From assembly GCF_029227855.1 (NCBI RefSeq), contig NZ_CP074356.1: a stretch of DNA of 64,000 nucleotides. One strand, given 5' to 3'. The notes beneath the pieces are model-generated. The model saw only the letters and a program-made list of their open reading frames with translations. It was not told the origin of the DNA and searched no databases. The number at the start of each line of letters is the position of its first letter. Position 1 is the stretch's first letter. This stretch comes from Escherichia coli. Its GTDB lineage: Bacteria; Pseudomonadota; Gammaproteobacteria; Enterobacterales; Enterobacteriaceae. Made by a program: the position numbers and the translations under genes. This document shows, one piece after another, positions 13,510-22,072 of this stretch.

Positions 13510-13526
13510 AGGATGAAGAGATGATA

Positions 13527-13799
13527 ATGAATTTCAGACACAAGGGATTGCGTGACTTGTTTCTTCTCGGCAAAACCTCCGGCGTTATACCGACGCAAGT
13601 CAAACGATTACGCCACCGACTCGCTGTGATTGATGCAGCAAGCTGTCTTGCTGATATCGATATGCCCGGTTACCGACTACACCCGTTAAGCGGTGATCGC
13701 GATGGAATTTGGGCGATATCTGTCTCGGGCAACTGGCGAATCACATTTGAATTCGTCAATGGCGATGCATACATACTGGATTACGAGGACTATCACTAA
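13527..13799 (+). CDS. HigB-like (RelE/ParE superfamily) toxin
   Basis: About 90 aa basic ORF directly upstream of, and overlapping, an HTH antitoxin gene (toxin-first order typical of HigBA). Confidence 0.65.
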
Positions 13800-14083
13800 T
13801 GAAAATGGCCAATCATCCCCGCCCGGGGGACATTATTCAGGAATCACTGGACGAGCTTAACGTCAGCCTGCGCGAGTTTGCCAGAGCAATGGAAATTGCG
13901 CCCTCAACGGCAAGCCGATTGCTGACAGGAAAAGCGGCGCTCACTCCGGAAATGGCGATTAAACTTTCCGTGGTGATCGGCAGTTCGCCGCAAATGTGGC
14001 TGAATCTGCAAAACGCCTGGAGTCTGGCAGAGGCAGAAAAAACGGTGGATGTGTCGCGACTGCGCCGTCTGGTTACGCAATAA
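13799..14083 (+). CDS. yddM: HigA-like HTH (Xre family) antitoxin
   Basis: 94 aa ORF with helix-turn-helix segment [25 protein letters not shown] overlap with the toxin gene; position between adhP and fdnI. Confidence 0.65.
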
Positions 14084-14092
14084 AATAAATAT

Positions 14093-14117
14093 CCTCCGGC
14101 ATAGCCGGAGGTTTTTC
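14093..14117 (+). terminator. Rho-independent terminator after the TA operon (could alternatively be IS200 end structure)
   Basis: Hairpin cctccggc-ata-gccggagg followed by ttttt. Confidence 0.4.
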
Positions 14118-14124
14118 AAATGCG

Positions 14125-14790
14125 CCTATAAGGCTCTCTTACCAGCCGCGCCCTAACAGGCGCACACGATCTGACATTTGCATCCAACTTCGTTACTTAC
14201 GGCCCGTAAACGGGCTGCCCGGATAGGGAATCGATAACTGCTCTCCCATTTTATCCTCTTCAAGCTGGTGCTTTATGTAATCCTGTATCTTCGCCGTGTT
14301 CTTACCCACCGTATCGACGTAGTACCCTCTGCACCAGAACTCCCTGTTCCTGTATTTGAATTTCAAATCACCAAACTGCTCGTAAAGCATCAGACTGCTT
14401 TTCCCTTTCAGATATCCCATAAAGCCGGATACGCTCATTTTGGGCGGGATCTCCACAAGCATATGGATATGATCTGCACAGCATTCAGCTTCCAGAATCC
14501 GTACGCTTTTCCACTCACACAGCTTTCTCAAAATACTGCCTATTGCTCTACGCTTCTCTCTGTAGAACACCTGTCTTCGGTATTTTGGCGCAAAAACTAT
14601 GTGATATTTACAGTTCCATCGGGTGTGCGCTAAGCTCTTTTCGTTCCCCATTGGGACCCCCTTTTGATTTCTTGTTTGACACTTGCAGTTGCCAGACCGC
14701 AAAGTGTTTTAACAAATCAAAAGGGGTTTTAATAACTGGCTCAAAGCTGAAAGCTTTCCGGAACCCCCAGCCTAGCTGGGGGTTTTCTGT
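14125..14790 (-). mobile_element. IS200-family insertion sequence (boundaries approximate)
   Basis: Single Y1 HUH transposase gene plus stable hairpins in the tnpA leader (ccccc-agcctagct-ggggg around 14764-14782); no such element is expected between yddM and fdnI in K-12 from memory. Confidence 0.5.
14193..14651 (-). CDS. tnpA: IS200/IS605-family Y1 (HUH) transposase TnpA
   Basis: 152 aa from MGNEKSLAHTRWNCKYHIVFAPKYRR; HUH motif HIHMLV. Confidence 0.85.
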   Translation of the reverse strand: MGNEKSLAHTRWNCKYHIVFAPKYRRQVFYREKRRAIGSILRKLCEWKSVRILEAECCADHIHMLVEIPPKMSVSGFMGYLKGKSSLMLYEQFGDLKFKYRNREFWCRGYYVDTVGKNTAKIQDYIKHQLEEDKMGEQLSIPYPGSPFTGRK

Positions 14791-14794
14791 GCAC

Positions 14795-14824
14795 AAAAAA
14801 TGGCGCTTCTTAAAGCGCCATTTT
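14795..14824. terminator. Bidirectional rho-independent terminator downstream of fdnI
   Basis: Perfect hairpin tggcgc-ttcttaa-agcgcca flanked by an A-run and a T-run. Confidence 0.5.
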
Positions 14825-14845
14825 CAGCTTAAAGTTCAAAAGAGA

Positions 14846-15499: not shown

Positions 15500-16376
15500 G
15501 ATGATCCTCCTCGTCATCGTCCACTTCCTTATTCGGGCCAATACCGATGTAGTGGAAAATCAACCCGGCAAAAGTGGCAATAAAGCCAGCCGCTGCCAGC
15601 GGTTTCAACGCGCCTTTCCACAGGCTTACCGAGGTGTCGATCTTCGGATCTTTCGGCAGACCGTGATACAGCTCCGGCTGATCGGCGTGATGCAGCACGT
15701 ACATAACGTGCGTACCACCGACCCCTTCCGGGTTGTAGACGCCAGCATGTTCGTAACCACGCGCTTTCAGTTTCGCCACGCGCTGTTCCGCCAGCTCCAG
15801 CATCTCCTTCTTGGTGCCGAAGTGGATAGCCCCGGTCGGACAGGTTTTCACACAAGCCGGTTCCTGGCCGACGCTGACGCGATCGACGCAGAGCGTGCAT
15901 TTATATACCCGGTTATCCTCTTTGTTGAGGCGCGGAATATTAAACGGACACCCGGCAATGCAGTAACCACAGCCGATGCAGTTTTCCGACTGGAAATCAA
16001 CAATCCCGTTAGCGTACTGAATGATTGCACCAGCAGACGGGCACGCCTTCAGGCAGCCCGGATCTTCACAGTGCATACAGCCGTCTTTACGGATCAGCCA
16101 CTCCAGCTTGCCGTTCTGTTCGGTTTCGCTAAAGCGCATCACCGTCCAGGACTTGGCGCTCAGATCGGCGGGGTTATCGTAAACCCCGACGCAGTGCCCC
16201 ACTTCATCACGGATGTCGTTCCACTCTGAACACGCCACCTGACAGGCTTTACAGCCGATACAGGTGGAAACGTCGATAAGTTTCGCGACTTCTGCTTTGT
16301 AATCACGCACCTGAGAAGGCGGCGTGATGGAGTTAGTTGCGGACCTTTTGATAATGTCCTGCGTTTCCATAGCCAT
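15492..16376 (-). CDS. fdnH: Formate dehydrogenase-N beta subunit (4x[4Fe-4S])
   Basis: 294 aa with multiple CxxCxxCxxxCP ferredoxin motifs and a C-terminal TM anchor. Confidence 0.9.
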
Positions 16377-16388
16377 CTGTTCGCCCCC

Positions 16389-19300
16389 TTACGCCTTCTC
16401 AATGTTGACTAAGAACGCTTTATATTCCGGCGTTTGCGAGTTTGCATCACCGACATTCGGCGTCAGAGTGTTAGCGATATAACCTTTACGCGCGACACCC
16501 TCAAAGCCCCAGTGGATTGGAATACCCACCGTTTCAACCTGCTGACCGTTTACATTCAGCGGTTTCAGACGGCGCGTTACCACCGCCACCGCGCGGATAA
16601 AGCCACGCTTGCTTGAGACAGTGACACGATCGCCATTATTAATGCCTTTCGCCGCCGCCAGCGTTTCGCTGATTTCCACAAACTGTTCCGGCTGAGCAAT
16701 TGCGTTGAGCAACGCGTGCTTGGTCCAGGTGTGGAAGTGCTCGGTCAGACGATAGGTCGTACCCACATACGGGAACTGCTCTTTTTTACCCATCCGCAGC
16801 GCGTCTTGTTCATACAGACGAACCACCGGGTTAGACACCACGTTCGGATGCAGCGGGTTAGTGCCCAGCGGCGTTTCGATTGGCTCGTAGTGTTCCGGGA
16901 ACGGACCTTCCGCCATTTTGTTGATGGCAAACAGGCGTCCCATCCCTTCCGGCTGCATGATAAACGGCCCGGTTGGCGTACCCGGTGCGGCATTGCCGAA
17001 GTCAGGAATATCGTTACCCGTCCACTTGCTGCCGTTCCACTGGATCAGCATCCGTTTCGGATCCCACGGTTTACCGCTGATATCCGCCGAAGCACGGTTG
17101 TAGAGTACGCGACGGTTGAGCGGCCACGCCCAGGCCCATCCCAGCGTATTCCCCAGACCGGACGGGTCGGAGTTATCGCGGTTAGCCATCTGGTTGCCCT
17201 GCTCTGTCCAGCTACCGGTGTAGATCCAGCAAGACGATGCGGTTGTACCGTCATCACGCAGATGCGCAAAGCTACTCAGCAACTGACCTTTCTTCGCAAT
17301 CAGCACGCCATTAGCATCATAGAGATCTTCCAGCGCATAGCCGTTATTCTCTTTCGCCACTTCGTCAGACTGCGGTTCGTGCGGCTGCTTGTAGTTCCAG
17401 CTCATCTTCATCAGCGGTTCTACGCCTTTACCACCTTCGGCCTGGTACAGCTCGCGCAGATGATGGTAGATACCCGCCAGAATTTCGCCGTCGTTACGCG
17501 CTTCGCCCGGCGCATCCTGACCTTTCCAGTGCCACTGCAACCAGCGACCGGAGTTAGCGATAGAACCATCTTCTTCAGCAAAGCAGGTCGAAGGCAGACG
17601 GAATACCTCAGTCTGAATAGACGCCGGATCGACATCGTTCGACTCGCCGTGGTTCTGCCAGAAGGTAGAAGTTTCAGTCACCAGCGGATCGATAACCACC
17701 ATGTACTTCAGCTTGCTCAGGCAGCTCACCACTTTGTTTTTGTCCGGGAAGGACGCAACCGGGTTAAAGCCCTGGCAGAAATAACCGGTGACTTTGCCTT
17801 CATCCATCATGTTGAAATACTTGATGACGTCGTAGGTCTGGTCCCACTTAGGCAGCCAGTCGTAGCCCCAGTTATTCTCTTTCTGCGCGGCATCGCCGTA
17901 GAAAGATTTCATCAGGCTAACGAAGAACTTCGGATAGTTGCTCCAGTAGTTCACCTGATCAGCCAGCGTCGCTTTCGGCGTGTTCGCTTCCAGATACGAC
18001 TGCAAATCAACCTGTTTTTCTGACGGCAGCGTCAGATAACCCGGCAGGCTGGTAGAGAGCAGGCCTAAGTCGGTCAGCCCCTGAATGTTGGAGTGACCAC
18101 GCAATGCGTTCACGCCGCCACCGGCCATACCCATGTTACCGAGCAGTAACTGGATCATCGCCATAGTACGGATGTTCTGCGCACCCACGGTGTGCTGCGT
18201 CCAGCCCAGCGCGTAAAGGAAGGTGGTTGTGCGATCCGGTGCGCTGGTGGAGGCCAGCACTTCACACACTTTCAGGAAGTCGGCTTTTGGCGTACCACAG
18301 ATGTTTTCTACTACGTCCGGCGTGTAGCGGGAAACGTGCTCTTTCAGCAAGTTCCACACACAGCGCGGATGAGTCAGTGTTTCATCGCGTTTCGCATAGC
18401 CGTTTTCATCGAACTGATAGTTCCAGGACGATTTATCGTATTGACGTTTTTCAGCGTCGTAGCCGCTGAACAGACCGTCTTCGAAAGCAAAATCATCACG
18501 CACCAGCAGACTGGCGTTGGTGTAATGCTTAACGTATTCGGCGTTGATTTTGTTGTTTTCGATCAGGTAGCGCAAAACGCCAGACAGGAACGTAATGTCC
18601 GTACCGGAACGAATAGGTGCGTAAATATCCGCTACAGAAGCGGTACGCGTAAAACGGGGATCGACAACGATCAAGGTTGCATCGTTGTTGTTTTTCGCTT
18701 CCATCGCCCAGCGGAAACCGACGGGATGCGCTTCAGCAGCGTTACCGCCCATCACCATTACGACGTTAGCGTTTTTGATATCCACCCAGTGGTTGGTCAT
18801 CGCACCGCGACCAAATGTTGGAGCAAGACTTGCTACCGTTGGTCCGTGTCAGACGCGCGCCTGGTTGTCTACCGCCAGCATCCCGAGGGAGCGGGCAAAT
18901 TTCTGGGTCAGCATCCCGGTTTCGTTGCTGGCACCGGAGGCACACAGCATACCGGTAGAAAGCCAACGGTTTACCGTTACGCCCTGCTCGTTCTTTTCAA
19001 TAAAGTTAGCGTCACGGTCAGCTTTCATCAGCTTCGCAATACGGGAGAATGCTTCATCCCAGCTAATGCGCTGCCATTTGTCAGAACCTGGCGCACGATA
19101 TTCCGGGTAGCGCAGACGGTTTTCGCTGTTGACGTAATCCAGCAAACCGGCCCCTTTCGGGCACAGCGCACCACGGCTTACCGGATGATCCGGGTCACCT
19201 TCAATGTGATAAATCGCTTCTCTGGCGTTTTTCGCGCCATCACCCAGGCTATACATCAATAGCCCGCAACCTACGGAACAGTATGTGCAGGTGTTACGGA

Positions 19301-19436
19301 TCTCTTTAGCGCGTAATAATTTGTAGTTTCGCGCCTGAGCCAGTGCTTGCTTTGGGGCAAAGCCCAATGCCGCTACTGTTGTTCCAGCCATACCGCCCGC
19401 GCAGATTTTAAAAAATTGTCTGCGACTGACGTCCAT
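16389..19436 (-). CDS. fdnG: Formate dehydrogenase-N alpha subunit, selenoprotein (UGA at 18849-18851 read as Sec)
   Basis: Two ORF-track pieces (16389..18800 and 18849..19436) are in the same frame and joined by one TGA; total 1015 codons; Tat signal RRQFFK; molybdopterin oxidoreductase family. Confidence 0.9.
18801..18851 (-). other. Selenocysteine UGA codon plus expected SECIS hairpin region immediately 3' in the mRNA
   Basis: In-frame TGA at the position of the catalytic Sec; mRNA just downstream contains a hairpin-capable stretch (gcaag-ucu-ugc core). Confidence 0.55.
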
Positions 19437-19499
19437 TGCTTTCCTCTTTTTTCAGGGGTATTACTGCGCGAGGAAACTAACAGTAAAATTCTGAATCTT

Positions 19500-19515
19500 T
19501 TTGCGCGAAATCAAA
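19500..19515. promoter_or_regulatory. FNR-like half-palindrome (TTGCG-N4-ATCAA) in the fdnG/yddG divergent intergenic region
   Basis: Partial match to TTGAT-N4-ATCAA about 70 bp upstream of the fdnG start; fdnGHI is anaerobically induced. Confidence 0.3.
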
Positions 19516-19667
19516 AAGAACACGTGTTTGCCACAAAATAATCCGCCTGCGCAAATTGACCTACCTCAATAGCGGTAGAAAAACGCACCACTGCCTGACA
19601 GGCCAGTTAAAAAAATGCTATAAAATTCAGCTTAATTTTTAACGGCAAGAGAGACAAAACAGCGAGC

Positions 19668-20549
19668 ATGACACGACAAAAAGCAACGCTCATAGGGCTA
19701 ATAGCGATCGTCCTGTGGAGCACGATGGTAGGATTGATTCGCGGTGTCAGTGAGGGGCTCGGCCCGGTCGGCGGTGCAGCTGCTATCTATTCATTAAGCG
19801 GGCTGCTGTTAATCTTCACGGTTGGATTTCCGCGTATTCGGCAGATCCCGAAAGGCTATTTACTTGCCGGGTGTCTGTTATTCGTCAGCTATGAAATCTG
19901 TCTGGCGCTTTCCTTAGGATATGCGGCGACCCGTCATCAGGCGATTGAAGTGGGTATGGTGAACTATCTGTGGCCCAGCCTGACAATTCTCTTTGCCATT
20001 CTGTTTAATGGTCAGAAAACCAACTGGCTGATTGTACCAGGATTATTATTAGCCCTGGTTGGCGTCTGCTGGGTGTTAGGTGGTGACAATGGGTTACATT
20101 ATGATGAAATCATCAATAATATCACCACCAGCCCATTGAGTTATTTCCTGGCGTTTATTGGTGCGTATATCTGGGCAGCCTATTGCACAGTAACGAATAA
20201 ATACGCACGCGGATTTAACGGAATTACCGTTTTTGTCCTACTAACGGGAGCAAGTCTGTGGGTTTACTATTTTCTCACGCCACAACCAGAAATGGTATTT
20301 AGCACGCCCGTCATGATTAAACTCACCTCTGCGGCATTTACCTTAGGATTTGCTTATGCTGCATGGAACGTCGGTATATTACATGGCAACGTCACCATTA
20401 TGGCGGTAGGTTCGTATTTTACGCCCGTCCTTTCCTCAGCGCTTGCAGCCGTGCTGCTCAGCGCCCCGCTGTCGTTCTCGTTCTGGCAAGGCGCGCTAAT
20501 GGTCTGCGGCGGTTCCCTGCTCTGCTGGCTGGCGACACGTCGTGGCTAA
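19668..20549 (+). CDS. yddG: Aromatic amino acid exporter (DMT superfamily)
   Basis: 293 aa, 10-TM EamA-like protein. Confidence 0.9.
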   Translation: MTRQKATLIGLIAIVLWSTMVGLIRGVSEGLGPVGGAAAIYSLSGLLLIFTVGFPRIRQIPKGYLLAGCLLFVSYEICLALSLGYAATRHQAIEVGMVNYLWPSLTILFAILFNGQKTNWLIVPGLLLALVGVCWVLGGDNGLHYDEIINNITTSPLSYFLAFIGAYIWAAYCTVTNKYARGFNGITVFVLLTGASLWVYYFLTPQPEMVFSTPVMIKLTSAAFTLGFAYAAWNVGILHGNVTIMAVGSYFTPVLSSALAAVLLSAPLSFSFWQGALMVCGGSLLCWLATRRG

Positions 20550-20807
20550 AATAATTGTCGGGTCTACGGCCCGGCAGTTAATCAGATAAATTCCGACAAT
20601 ATAAAAAAATAAATTTCAAATACCAGTAGTTCACCTTATATCTCATTTCGACTTCGATCACATATCGATAAATAATATTATTTCATCTATTTTTCTCATT
20701 GTTTTTAATCACCATTCTATTTTAAAAACAGTATGTCATTTATAAATGACGCCGTTTAAAATTCGTTTAGAAAATACGTTTAACGATAATTAAAAGGATT
20801 CTGTTAA

Positions 20808-21909
20808 ATGAAATTAAAAATAGTTGCGGTGGTTGTAACTGGTTTGTTAGCTGCGAACGTAGCACACGCTGCCGAAGTCTATAACAAGGATGGTAATAAA
20901 CTCGACCTTTATGGCAAGGTTACCGCTCTACGTTATTTTACTGATGATAAGCGTGACGATGGTGATAAAACTTATGCCCGTCTCGGCTTTAAAGGAGAAA
21001 CGCAAATCAATGATCAAATGATTGGTTTTGGTCACTGGGAATATGATTTTAAAGGCTATAACGATGAAGCCAACGGCTCGCGCGGTAACAAGACCCGTCT
21101 GGCCTATGCAGGTTTAAAAATTAGTGAATTTGGCTCTCTGGGACTATGGTCGTAACTACGGTGTCGGCTATGACATTGGTTCATGGACCGATATGTTGCC
21201 AGAATTTGGTGGCGATACCTGGAGTCAGAAAGATGTCTTCATGACATACCGTACTACCGGTGTGGCAACCTATCGCAACTACGATTTCTTCGGCTTAATT
21301 GAAGGTCTGAACTTTGCCGCGCAATATCAAGGCAAAAATGAACCCACTGACAATGGTCATCTTTATGGTGCTGACTACACGCGTGCCAATGGTGACGGTT
21401 TCGGTATCTCCTCAACTTATGTTTATGATGGCTTTGGTATCGGTGCGGTGTATACCAAATCCGATCGGACAAATGCGCAGGAAAGAGCCGCTGCTAATCC
21501 TCTCAATGCCTCCGGTAAGAATGCAGAACTGTGGGCTACAGGTATAAAATATGATGCCAACAACATCTACTTTGCAGCTAATTACGCTGAAACATTAAAC
21601 ATGACCACCTATGGCGATGGTTATATCTCTAACAAAGCACAAAGTTTTGAAGTAGTGGCACAATATCAATTCGACTTCGGCTTGCGCCCATCACTCGCTT
21701 ACCTGAAATCGAAAGGCAGAGATCTGGGCCGCTACGGCGACCAGGACATGATTGAGTATATCGACGTTGGTGCGACGTATTTCTTCAACAAAAATATGTC
21801 GACCTATGTTGATTATAAAATCAACCTGATTGATGAAAGCGACTTTACCCGTGCCGTAGATATTCGCACCGATAACATCGTCGCAACGGGCATTACCTAT
21901 CAGTTCTAA
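20808..21909 (+). pseudogene. OmpC/OmpN-family general porin, reading frame interrupted once (about 21145)
   Basis: Signal peptide, [16 protein letters not shown] start and C-terminal ...GITYQF typical of enterobacterial porins; split into 20808..21155 and 21124..21909 by one extra G in a G-run; this position holds a porin remnant (yddL) in K-12. Confidence 0.7.
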
Positions 21910-22072
21910 CATCCTCTCCTGACCAGCCCTTCTCTGGGCTGGTTTTTGATTTAAGTGCTGCTGTATGACTCCTTAAGTAAAAATGAGCAATTTTTGATAT
22001 TTCTGGTCATTCACCTCAATTAATATTATTCCATACCCTGCGGGGACATCTTACTATAATATTTATTGATGA

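Follow-up and report, generated by a model that had tools for sequence, protein, structure and literature searches.

An intact IS200C element between yddM and fdnI of Escherichia coli, its limits and its terminator-like insertion contexts

A small transposase gene that lies between a toxin–antitoxin module and the 3′ end of the fdnGHI operon raises the questions of what element carries it, where exactly that element starts and stops, and whether its presence says anything about the lineage of the Escherichia coli strain that holds it. The window, by which we mean the whole 64-kb stretch of DNA analysed, contains one IS200 copy. The original prediction placed an IS200-family element between these neighbours, in agreement with RefSeq annotation: a 761-bp query over the element finds a 100% identical stretch in E. 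coli JNEC-KY178, where the ORF between yddM and fdnI is RefSeq/PGAP WP_000526135.1, an “IS200/IS605-like element IS200C family transposase”. The window element is almost certainly an intact, autonomous copy of IS200C, from the IS200 group of the IS200/IS605 family, which spans 712 bp on the minus strand at approximately 14084..14795 and disrupts no gene. IS200C is the E. coli isoform of IS200 and a catalogued element, and its fdnI–yddM insertion is already annotated in public genomes; the name, as we apply it to the window copy, is the presumptive one given by RefSeq annotation.

Identity of the element

The sole ORF with a family match within the 712 bp is tnpA, and tnpB is absent.

14193..14651, minus strand: tnpA, encoding a 152-aa Y1 HUH transposase, assigned from Pfam PF01797, RefSeq and solved structures

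A match to Pfam PF01797 (Y1_Tnp, “Transposase IS200 like”) covers 120 of the 121 positions of the profile with E=3.8e-38; the product carries H61-I-H63 and Y125 and aligns to the solved TnpA structures 2ec2 and 2f4f, those of IS608 (2a6m/2vjv) and that of ISDra2 (2xm3). This bears out the predicted 152-aa Y1 HUH transposase with its HIHMLV motif, within which H61-I-H63 lies. A Y125F TnpA is catalytically dead (Ellis 2015, PMC4513863), so that Y125 is taken as the catalytic Tyr, and a placement of this residue in the GYY motif was rejected. A longer, 169-aa ORF with a TTG start was rejected, since the ATG start of the 152-aa ORF has a Shine–Dalgarno sequence (SD), AAGGGGGU, gives the protein that RefSeq lists and coincides with the ATG published for nt 145. 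The two termini, TGTGCAC... and ...ATATTTATT, are not inverted repeats of each other, so terminal inverted repeats are absent. The “typical IS200 organisation” that had been described from the sequence matches both the RefSeq annotation and Ellis et al. 2015 (PMC4513863).

Among the closest described elements is IS200 of Salmonella enterica (Lam & Roth; Ellis et al. 2015, PMC4513863), which likewise has a single 152-aa TnpA with Y125. It is quoted at 707 bp against 712 bp for the IS200C copy in the window, a comparison to be read with the varying definition of ends in T-runs; listed IS200 lengths span 707–714 bp (PMC6963479).

There is a negligible chance that the ORF is instead a domesticated RAYT/TnpA-REP gene, or the tnpA half of a tnpB-bearing element of the IS605/IS608 type. 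The Pfam domain is common to these and the window ORF, and K-12 carries REP elements within the same yddM–fdnI spacer. However, the element in the window is bordered by the stop codon of yddM and the terminator of fdnI, with no REP sequences at its flanks, and it is multi-copy with identical ends (24 places in JNEC-KY178, as many as 35 in other genomes), so it is not a RAYT gene; 712 bp is too small for tnpB, and without tnpB the element is not of the IS605 type. Sequence and leader are of the IS200 type, and the comparison with empty sites, together with the copy structure, already refutes both variants. Both end structures are present, and tnpA does not belong to a larger element, as shown by empty sites in which a clean spacer of 50 bp is all that remains.

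Copies related to it are widespread: of 5426 complete E. coli genomes, 2042 carry them, at no more than 35 places in any one genome and at 24 in JNEC-KY178, the closest genome, and they also occur on 1207 plasmid records; plasmid copies are 99.4–99.8% identical.

Ends and insertion site

The element lies between a HigB-like toxin ORF (PF05015) with the HTH antitoxin gene yddM, both on the plus strand to its left, and fdnI, which encodes a cytochrome b561-type subunit on the minus strand to its right. The features that define its limits are as follows.

14084..14795, minus strand: complete IS200C, 712 bp, ends ±1 nt, from homology limits, empty sites and published IS200 numbering
14081..14083, plus strand: stop codon TAA of yddM (higA-like antitoxin; ORF 13799..14083), abutting the right end of the IS
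14093..14111, minus strand: right-end subterminal hairpin CCTCCGGC-TAT-GCCGGAGG, with GAAAAA before it and a 9-nt tail, ATATTTATT, after it that ends the element
14797..14824, no strand assigned: host bidirectional intrinsic terminator of fdnGHI and yddM, AAAATGGCGCTT-CTTA-AAGCGCCATTTT, a 12-bp perfect inverted repeat that is not part of the IS

The ends were mapped with six plasmid copies and 30 IMG/VR loci, scanned with the left-end sequence, in different contexts; merging identical sites left ~23 independent contexts. In all of these ~23, similarity begins at GTGCACAGAAAACCCCC directly after a TT and ends with CCGGAGGATATTTA directly before another TT. Clean empty sites are found in BEC1-S17-ESBL-07 and 2013C-4830 (L009, L010), where the yddM–fdnI spacer is 50 bp and the empty site reads GCAATAAAAAAATGGCGC (GGTTACGCAATAAAAAAATGGCGCTTCTTAAAGCGCCATTTTCAGC), with seven A from the T of the yddM stop codon to the terminator stem. 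The window has four A, an unambiguous core of 709 nt (14086..14794) and six A, and ten A against seven, added to the core, give a net insertion of 712 nt. What is left of the 7-nt A/T target, now split, lies in the yddM stop codon and at positions 14796–14800. When nt 1 is set at 14795, the published IS200 landmarks are reproduced, namely the inverted repeat or hairpin at nt 12–34, the stem-loop at nt 69–138 and the ATG at nt 145, and they agree base for base with those of Salmonella IS200. Because both termini and the target are runs of T or A, each end carries an uncertainty of ±1 nt.

No longer direct repeat is present at the insertion; the occupied homopolymer site has three extra T/A residues. 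These are best read as IS termini, as every context has TT to either side of the element; a duplication of 1–3 T, which a homopolymer target would hide, is the less likely reading.

The limits first proposed, 14125..14830, were thus shifted at both ends, one of them by ~40 bp and the other by ~35 bp. They left out the 41-bp right end with its hairpin (14093–14111) and took in the host fdnI terminator (14797–14824), so that positions 14797–14830 are host and not IS sequence; the accompanying view that exact ends cannot be set gives way to ends set to ±1 nt by homology and empty sites. The element had correctly been placed next to a bidirectional fdnI terminator. K-12 was considered as an empty site and rejected, its fdnI–yddM spacer being 406 bp and made of two tandem units of a terminator copy plus REPs. 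Two Rfam matches that reflect terminator-hairpin similarity only were discarded: Ysr202 at 14010–14116 (31 bits against a gathering score of 315) and STnc320 at 14793–14830 (29 bits against a gathering score of 50).

The element entered the 7-nt A/T run that separates the stop codon of yddM from the terminator stem and that on the fdnI-sense strand is a 7-nt T-run after the fdnI terminator hairpin; none of the genes is disrupted, and the YddM protein, WP_000781370.1, is the same with and without the IS. The host terminator, whose hairpin defines the target, folds at −13.7 and −13.9 kcal/mol with z of about −5 and is unchanged in empty-site genomes. As read from the sequence, fdnI would keep its terminator hairpin with a 6-T tail, made of five host T and the first T of the IS, and yddM transcripts would now meet the right-end hairpin and T5 ~10 nt past the stop codon. 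The insertion is probably close to neutral for its neighbours.

The right-end hairpin, which is present in every copy and folds as DNA, is terminator-like on both strands, and on the plus strand it appears to transcripts leaving yddM as a hairpin followed by TTTTTC. For annotation, this means that the hairpin directly after yddM, easily mistaken for the terminator of the toxin–antitoxin module, is the right end of the IS and not part of that module.

Leader, hairpins and a model of transposition

The remaining structures lie within the element, most of them in the leader of tnpA.

14785..14795, minus strand: left-end terminus 5′-TGTGCACAGAA, the same in all copies, with an A-rich GAAAA just 5′ of the left-end hairpin
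14762..14784, minus strand: left-end subterminal hairpin AACCCCCAGC-TAG-GCTGGGGGTT, element nt 12–34, a perfect 10-bp inverted repeat
14658..14727, minus strand: 5′ UTR stem-loop, element nt 69–138, with the SD AAGGGGGU in its 3′ arm (inverted repeat I1, Rfam structure)
14642..14732, plus strand: predicted art200 antisense sRNA of ~90 nt, by homology only, complementary to the 5′ UTR of tnpA and to its three opening codons
14121..14164, minus strand: second right-end inverted repeat (I4), imperfect, with 13-nt arms that are 85% complementary; it also folds

The two subterminal hairpins lie on the same strand and share one design, with CCCCCAGC-TAG-GCTGGGGG at the left end and CCTCCGGC-TAT-GCCGGAGG at the right, similar stems of 8–10 bp, 3-nt loops and GAAAA(A) before each. 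The left-end hairpin folds as DNA at −13.6 kcal/mol (z=−3.2) and is presumed to be a TnpA binding site on the top strand; in IS200 it is a bidirectional terminator that shields tnpA from outside transcription (Ellis 2015, PMC4513863). The 5′ UTR stem-loop has an RNA fold of −40.4 kcal/mol (z=−3.9), and its IS200 counterpart sequesters the SD (Ellis 2015, PMC4513863). The extended leader hairpins noted at the outset are two strong ones, at 14762–14784 and 14658–14727, and the role ascribed to them, blocking read-through and translation, agrees with published work on IS200 (Ellis 2015, PMC4513863).

The leader is nearly identical to the consensus of Rfam RF01405 (STnc490, IS200 leader), which it matches at 14661–14784 over its full length of 1–124 with 144.6 bits against a gathering score of 56 (E=5.9e-31); the match is on the tnpA-sense strand and identifies the leader region, saying nothing of antisense RNA expression. 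The antisense RNA is placed from published data, in which the 5′ ends of art200 lie at IS200 nt 153/154, three codons into tnpA, and the RNA is ~90 nt long (Ellis 2015, PMC4513863). According to a published report (Ellis 2015, PMC4513863), this antisense RNA is also expressed by IS1541/IS200G of Yersinia, which likewise belongs to the IS200 group; IS1541/IS200G is a different isoform in another host, and it is compared here from publications. A simple promoter scan gave no sigma-70 consensus for tnpA or art200, which says nothing either way, given that the promoters described in publications are weak ones that depart from the consensus. IS200 is regulated by a weak promoter, the left-end hairpin as bidirectional terminator, the SD-sequestering stem-loop, art200 and Hfq (Ellis 2015, PMC4513863), and the sequences that match the IS200 regulatory parts are all conserved in the window copy.

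How such an element would move can be drawn from IS608 of Helicobacter pylori and ISDra2 of Deinococcus radiodurans, on which the mechanistic model for the family is built (PMC5934647). IS200C resembles them in that its TnpA is homologous to the solved structures (E=4e-19 and 2e-16), each end has a subterminal hairpin, terminal inverted repeats are lacking and insertion is oriented, 3′ of a short target at the left end. It differs in lacking tnpB and in its target, a T-run ending in TT beside a hairpin, as opposed to TTAC or TTGAT. An A-rich tetranucleotide stands 5′ of each IS200C hairpin, where the guide sequences of IS608 are found (PMC5934647). At the left end, the GAAAA is presumed to act as the “guide” for a T-rich target, in analogy to IS608, in which GL lies 5′ of the hairpin base (PMC5934647); an AAAA guide leads one to expect a T-rich target, and the pairing of guide and target in IS200C is modelled on the biochemistry of IS608 and ISDra2.

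By the same analogy, TnpA dimers would bind the top strand at its two subterminal hairpins, and the tetranucleotide that lies 5′ of each hairpin would specify the cleavage sites by pairing with them. The top strand would be excised as a single-stranded circle, which could be re-inserted 3′ of a short T-rich target in single-stranded DNA of the lagging-strand template (“peel and paste”). Expression of tnpA would meanwhile be held very low by the host terminator beside the IS, the terminator formed by the left-end hairpin, the stem-loop that sequesters the SD, and art200. In the window, tnpA is co-oriented with fdnGHI, which in K-12 is on the plus strand at 1.55 Mb in the clockwise replichore, and the GC skew of the plus strand is mainly negative, although noisy over 64 kb; co-orientation and skew together place the top strand of the IS on the lagging-strand template, as the replication-coupled model predicts, and lend this placement weak support.

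Recurrence and target context

IS200 at the fdnI–yddM spacer, with both junctions present, was found in 306–308 of 5426 complete E. coli genomes (~5.6%). The carriers differ in how many A flank the core on its left and right and in the IS allele.

Window and JNEC-KY178: 4 left, 6 right; allele 3 positions off the common allele
7/2 and EFF60, with no fewer than 58 of the best 60 rows: 3 left, 7 right; the common allele, also on unrelated plasmids and phages
GPEC1165: 2 left, 7 right; allele identical to a phage copy (L033)
B19695: 2 left, 8 right; 26 differences (of 709 positions) and a different TnpA, WP_000502112.1
13P477T: 2 left, 7 right; an internally deleted IS

Most carriers have the one configuration (3,7), several of them being ST405 strains (50579417, WCHEC4533). 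In the configurations (4,6), (3,7) and (2,8) the total is always ten, and this constancy points to a fixed 712-nt element that entered the T7 run at different registers, not to two independent slippages. Among the IS-bearing genomes inspected, higB occurs only in the window type, which also has two SNPs in the last 80 bp of yddM. The most parsimonious reading of these sequences is that at least three to four independent insertions entered the same 7 nt and that the site is a recurrent hot spot, because one T-run carries four IS200 alleles at different registers.

A single ancestral insertion, a true lineage marker later blurred by slippage, gene conversion and recombination of the flanks, would be another possible history, and we consider it improbable. 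The predominance of (3,7) with the common allele in at least 58 of the best 60 rows, several of them ST405, is what it would lead one to expect; homopolymers do slip, GPEC1165 has a total of nine and not ten in an assembly with frameshifts, and IS copies within a genome can convert each other. Yet independent slippage on each side does not predict that three configurations should all total ten, and each register comes with its own IS allele, one of them with 26 differences in 709 positions and with another TnpA protein. The alleles moreover match copies found elsewhere on plasmids and phages, and the flanking haplotypes differ, both in higB, confined to the window type, and in the two yddM SNPs.

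With several independent insertions, presence alone is not a clean lineage marker. The suggestion that the element would serve as a strain or lineage marker thus holds in part: the exact junction combined with the allele marks the strain, being found in 1 of 5426 genomes, a figure for a (4,6) configuration that rests on essentially one assembly, whereas the mere presence of IS200 is homoplasic. Salmonella IS200 is regarded as nearly immobile, whereas certain E. coli lineages carry IS200C at high copy number, with as many as 35 places in one genome, and the recurrent insertion suggests that IS200C is, or was, mobile in E. coli.

Recurrence at one terminator is matched by the contexts of the other copies. 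All 25 of the 5′ flanks end in TT at positions −1 and −2, and 22–24 of them have T at −4 and −5; every independent copy examined lies just 3′ of a GC-rich hairpin and a T-run, always on the left-end side and on the same strand. The 45 nt upstream fold at a mean of −17.4 kcal/mol, whereas 1500 T-rich positions of these sequences, taken as controls, have a mean of −7.05 (Mann–Whitney p=1.7e-15), and only 1.4% of the controls reach the observed median fold energy. The preferred site of IS200C is a terminator-like hairpin with a T-run behind it that ends in TT, a context that resembles the element's own right end (a hairpin and ATATTTATT), and this preference accounts for the repeated hits on the fdnI/yddM terminator in E. 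coli. On plasmid pNMBU-W05E18_02 (L003) two copies stand in tandem, the second of them immediately behind the first one's right-end hairpin and T-rich tail. IS200C copies have been described in T-rich regions (PMC6963479), and IS1541 of Yersinia between pheL and pheA, in the attenuator–terminator region (PMC3082878), a placement that fits the terminator preference of IS200C. Terminator-like sequences are also enriched just upstream of IS elements, most of all for IS200/IS605 (bioRxiv 10.1101/2025.07.22.666184). Within the papers covered by a literature search for an explicit account of hairpin-directed IS200 targeting, these statements on T-rich regions (PMC6963479) and on terminator enrichment (bioRxiv 10.1101/2025.07.22.666184) were all that was found.

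Two explanations of this preference have to be weighed. TnpA may need only a short T-rich target, with insertions after terminators being those that survive purifying selection, as they are neutral and shielded from read-through. We regard this as a serious possibility, though not the one we favour: by analogy to IS608, the guide-like AAAA 5′ of both IS hairpins would suffice to select a T-rich target, intergenic insertions are generally the tolerated ones, and the bioRxiv study (10.1101/2025.07.22.666184) reads the enrichment of upstream terminators as limiting transposase expression. However, survival does not readily explain why ~23 of ~23 independent sites have a hairpin a few nucleotides from the left end, on a constant side and strand, when T-rich controls rarely do, or why the hairpin context of one insertion (L005) lies within an annotated CDS. 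The tandem copy, moreover, uses the right-end hairpin of the IS itself as its context, and the independent insertions at the fdnI/yddM terminator fall within 3 nt of each other. We lean towards direct recognition of the hairpin by TnpA. A fuller proposal, which we put forward tentatively and judge to be somewhat less likely than not, is that TnpA chooses its targets by structure, taking a terminator hairpin and its T-run in single-stranded DNA as a mimic of the right end, so that terminators would be hot spots of variable register that at least three to four alleles have entered independently.

If such structural targeting is true, IS200 would be a terminator-homing element, and its presence or absence at such sites would be homoplasic for typing; at the fdnI–yddM spacer, only the junction register together with the IS allele is a safe marker. 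Landing at a hairpin and T-run is also why IS200C insertions are usually harmless, and the uniformity of this context offers a simple, testable rule for where IS200C lands.

Tandem and internally deleted IS200C copies and the Rfam annotation of the leader

At two other loci, IS200C departs from the simple insertion.

L003 (plasmid pNMBU-W05E18_02), 196-1061: direct tandem of two IS200C copies
L043 (E. coli 13P477T), 1163-1504: internally deleted IS200C at the same site as the window copy

In the plasmid tandem, the second copy begins directly past the right-end hairpin and T-rich tail of the first, as if the right end of the first copy had itself been used as a target. The 13P477T copy has a core of 522 nt, compared with 709 nt in the window, and its tnpA is annotated as partial; this internally deleted element illustrates decay in situ.

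The element's leader has a match in Rfam.

Window 14661-14784, minus strand (tnpA-sense): match to Rfam RF01405, 'STnc490'

This match covers nt 12-135 of IS200, including the left-end terminator hairpin. STnc490/art200 was defined as an antisense RNA spanning approximately nt 64-153 of IS200 (Ellis et al. 2015, PMC4513863), and the Rfam model therefore disagrees with the published sRNA in both strand and extent.

The higBA-type module and composition of the window

The antitoxin gene that abuts the insertion, yddM/higA, lies immediately downstream of a toxin gene on the plus strand.

Window 13521-13799, plus strand: intact HigB-like toxin ORF (PF05015)

With both genes present, the higBA-type module is complete. 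In K-12, in the two empty-site genomes and in all other inspected IS-bearing genomes, yddM stands alone as an orphan antitoxin, with a yddM-adhP spacer of ~145 bp. Among 5426 complete genomes, 1328 have the toxin region, and only 16 of these carry it at 99% identity or higher to that of the window.

Base composition also varies along the window. G+C content is 0.43-0.46 at ~16000-28000 and ~0.51 in the rest of the window, with the low-G+C stretch starting within or beyond fdnG; this segment may have been horizontally acquired. Between 40000 and 56000 (~16 kb), GC skew is strongly negative (-0.09 to -0.14) and AT skew is negative too, which probably reflects a long run of minus-strand genes.

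The fdnI-yddM spacer in K-12

The spacer between fdnI and yddM is 50 bp in the simple, empty-site genomes but much longer in K-12.

L002 (K-12 MG1655 locus), 1593-1998: fdnI-yddM spacer, 406 bp

It is made up of two tandem units of ~170 bp, each containing one copy of the terminator hairpin and a REP pair. The terminator region hit by IS200 has therefore undergone remodelling through REP/BIME expansion as well.
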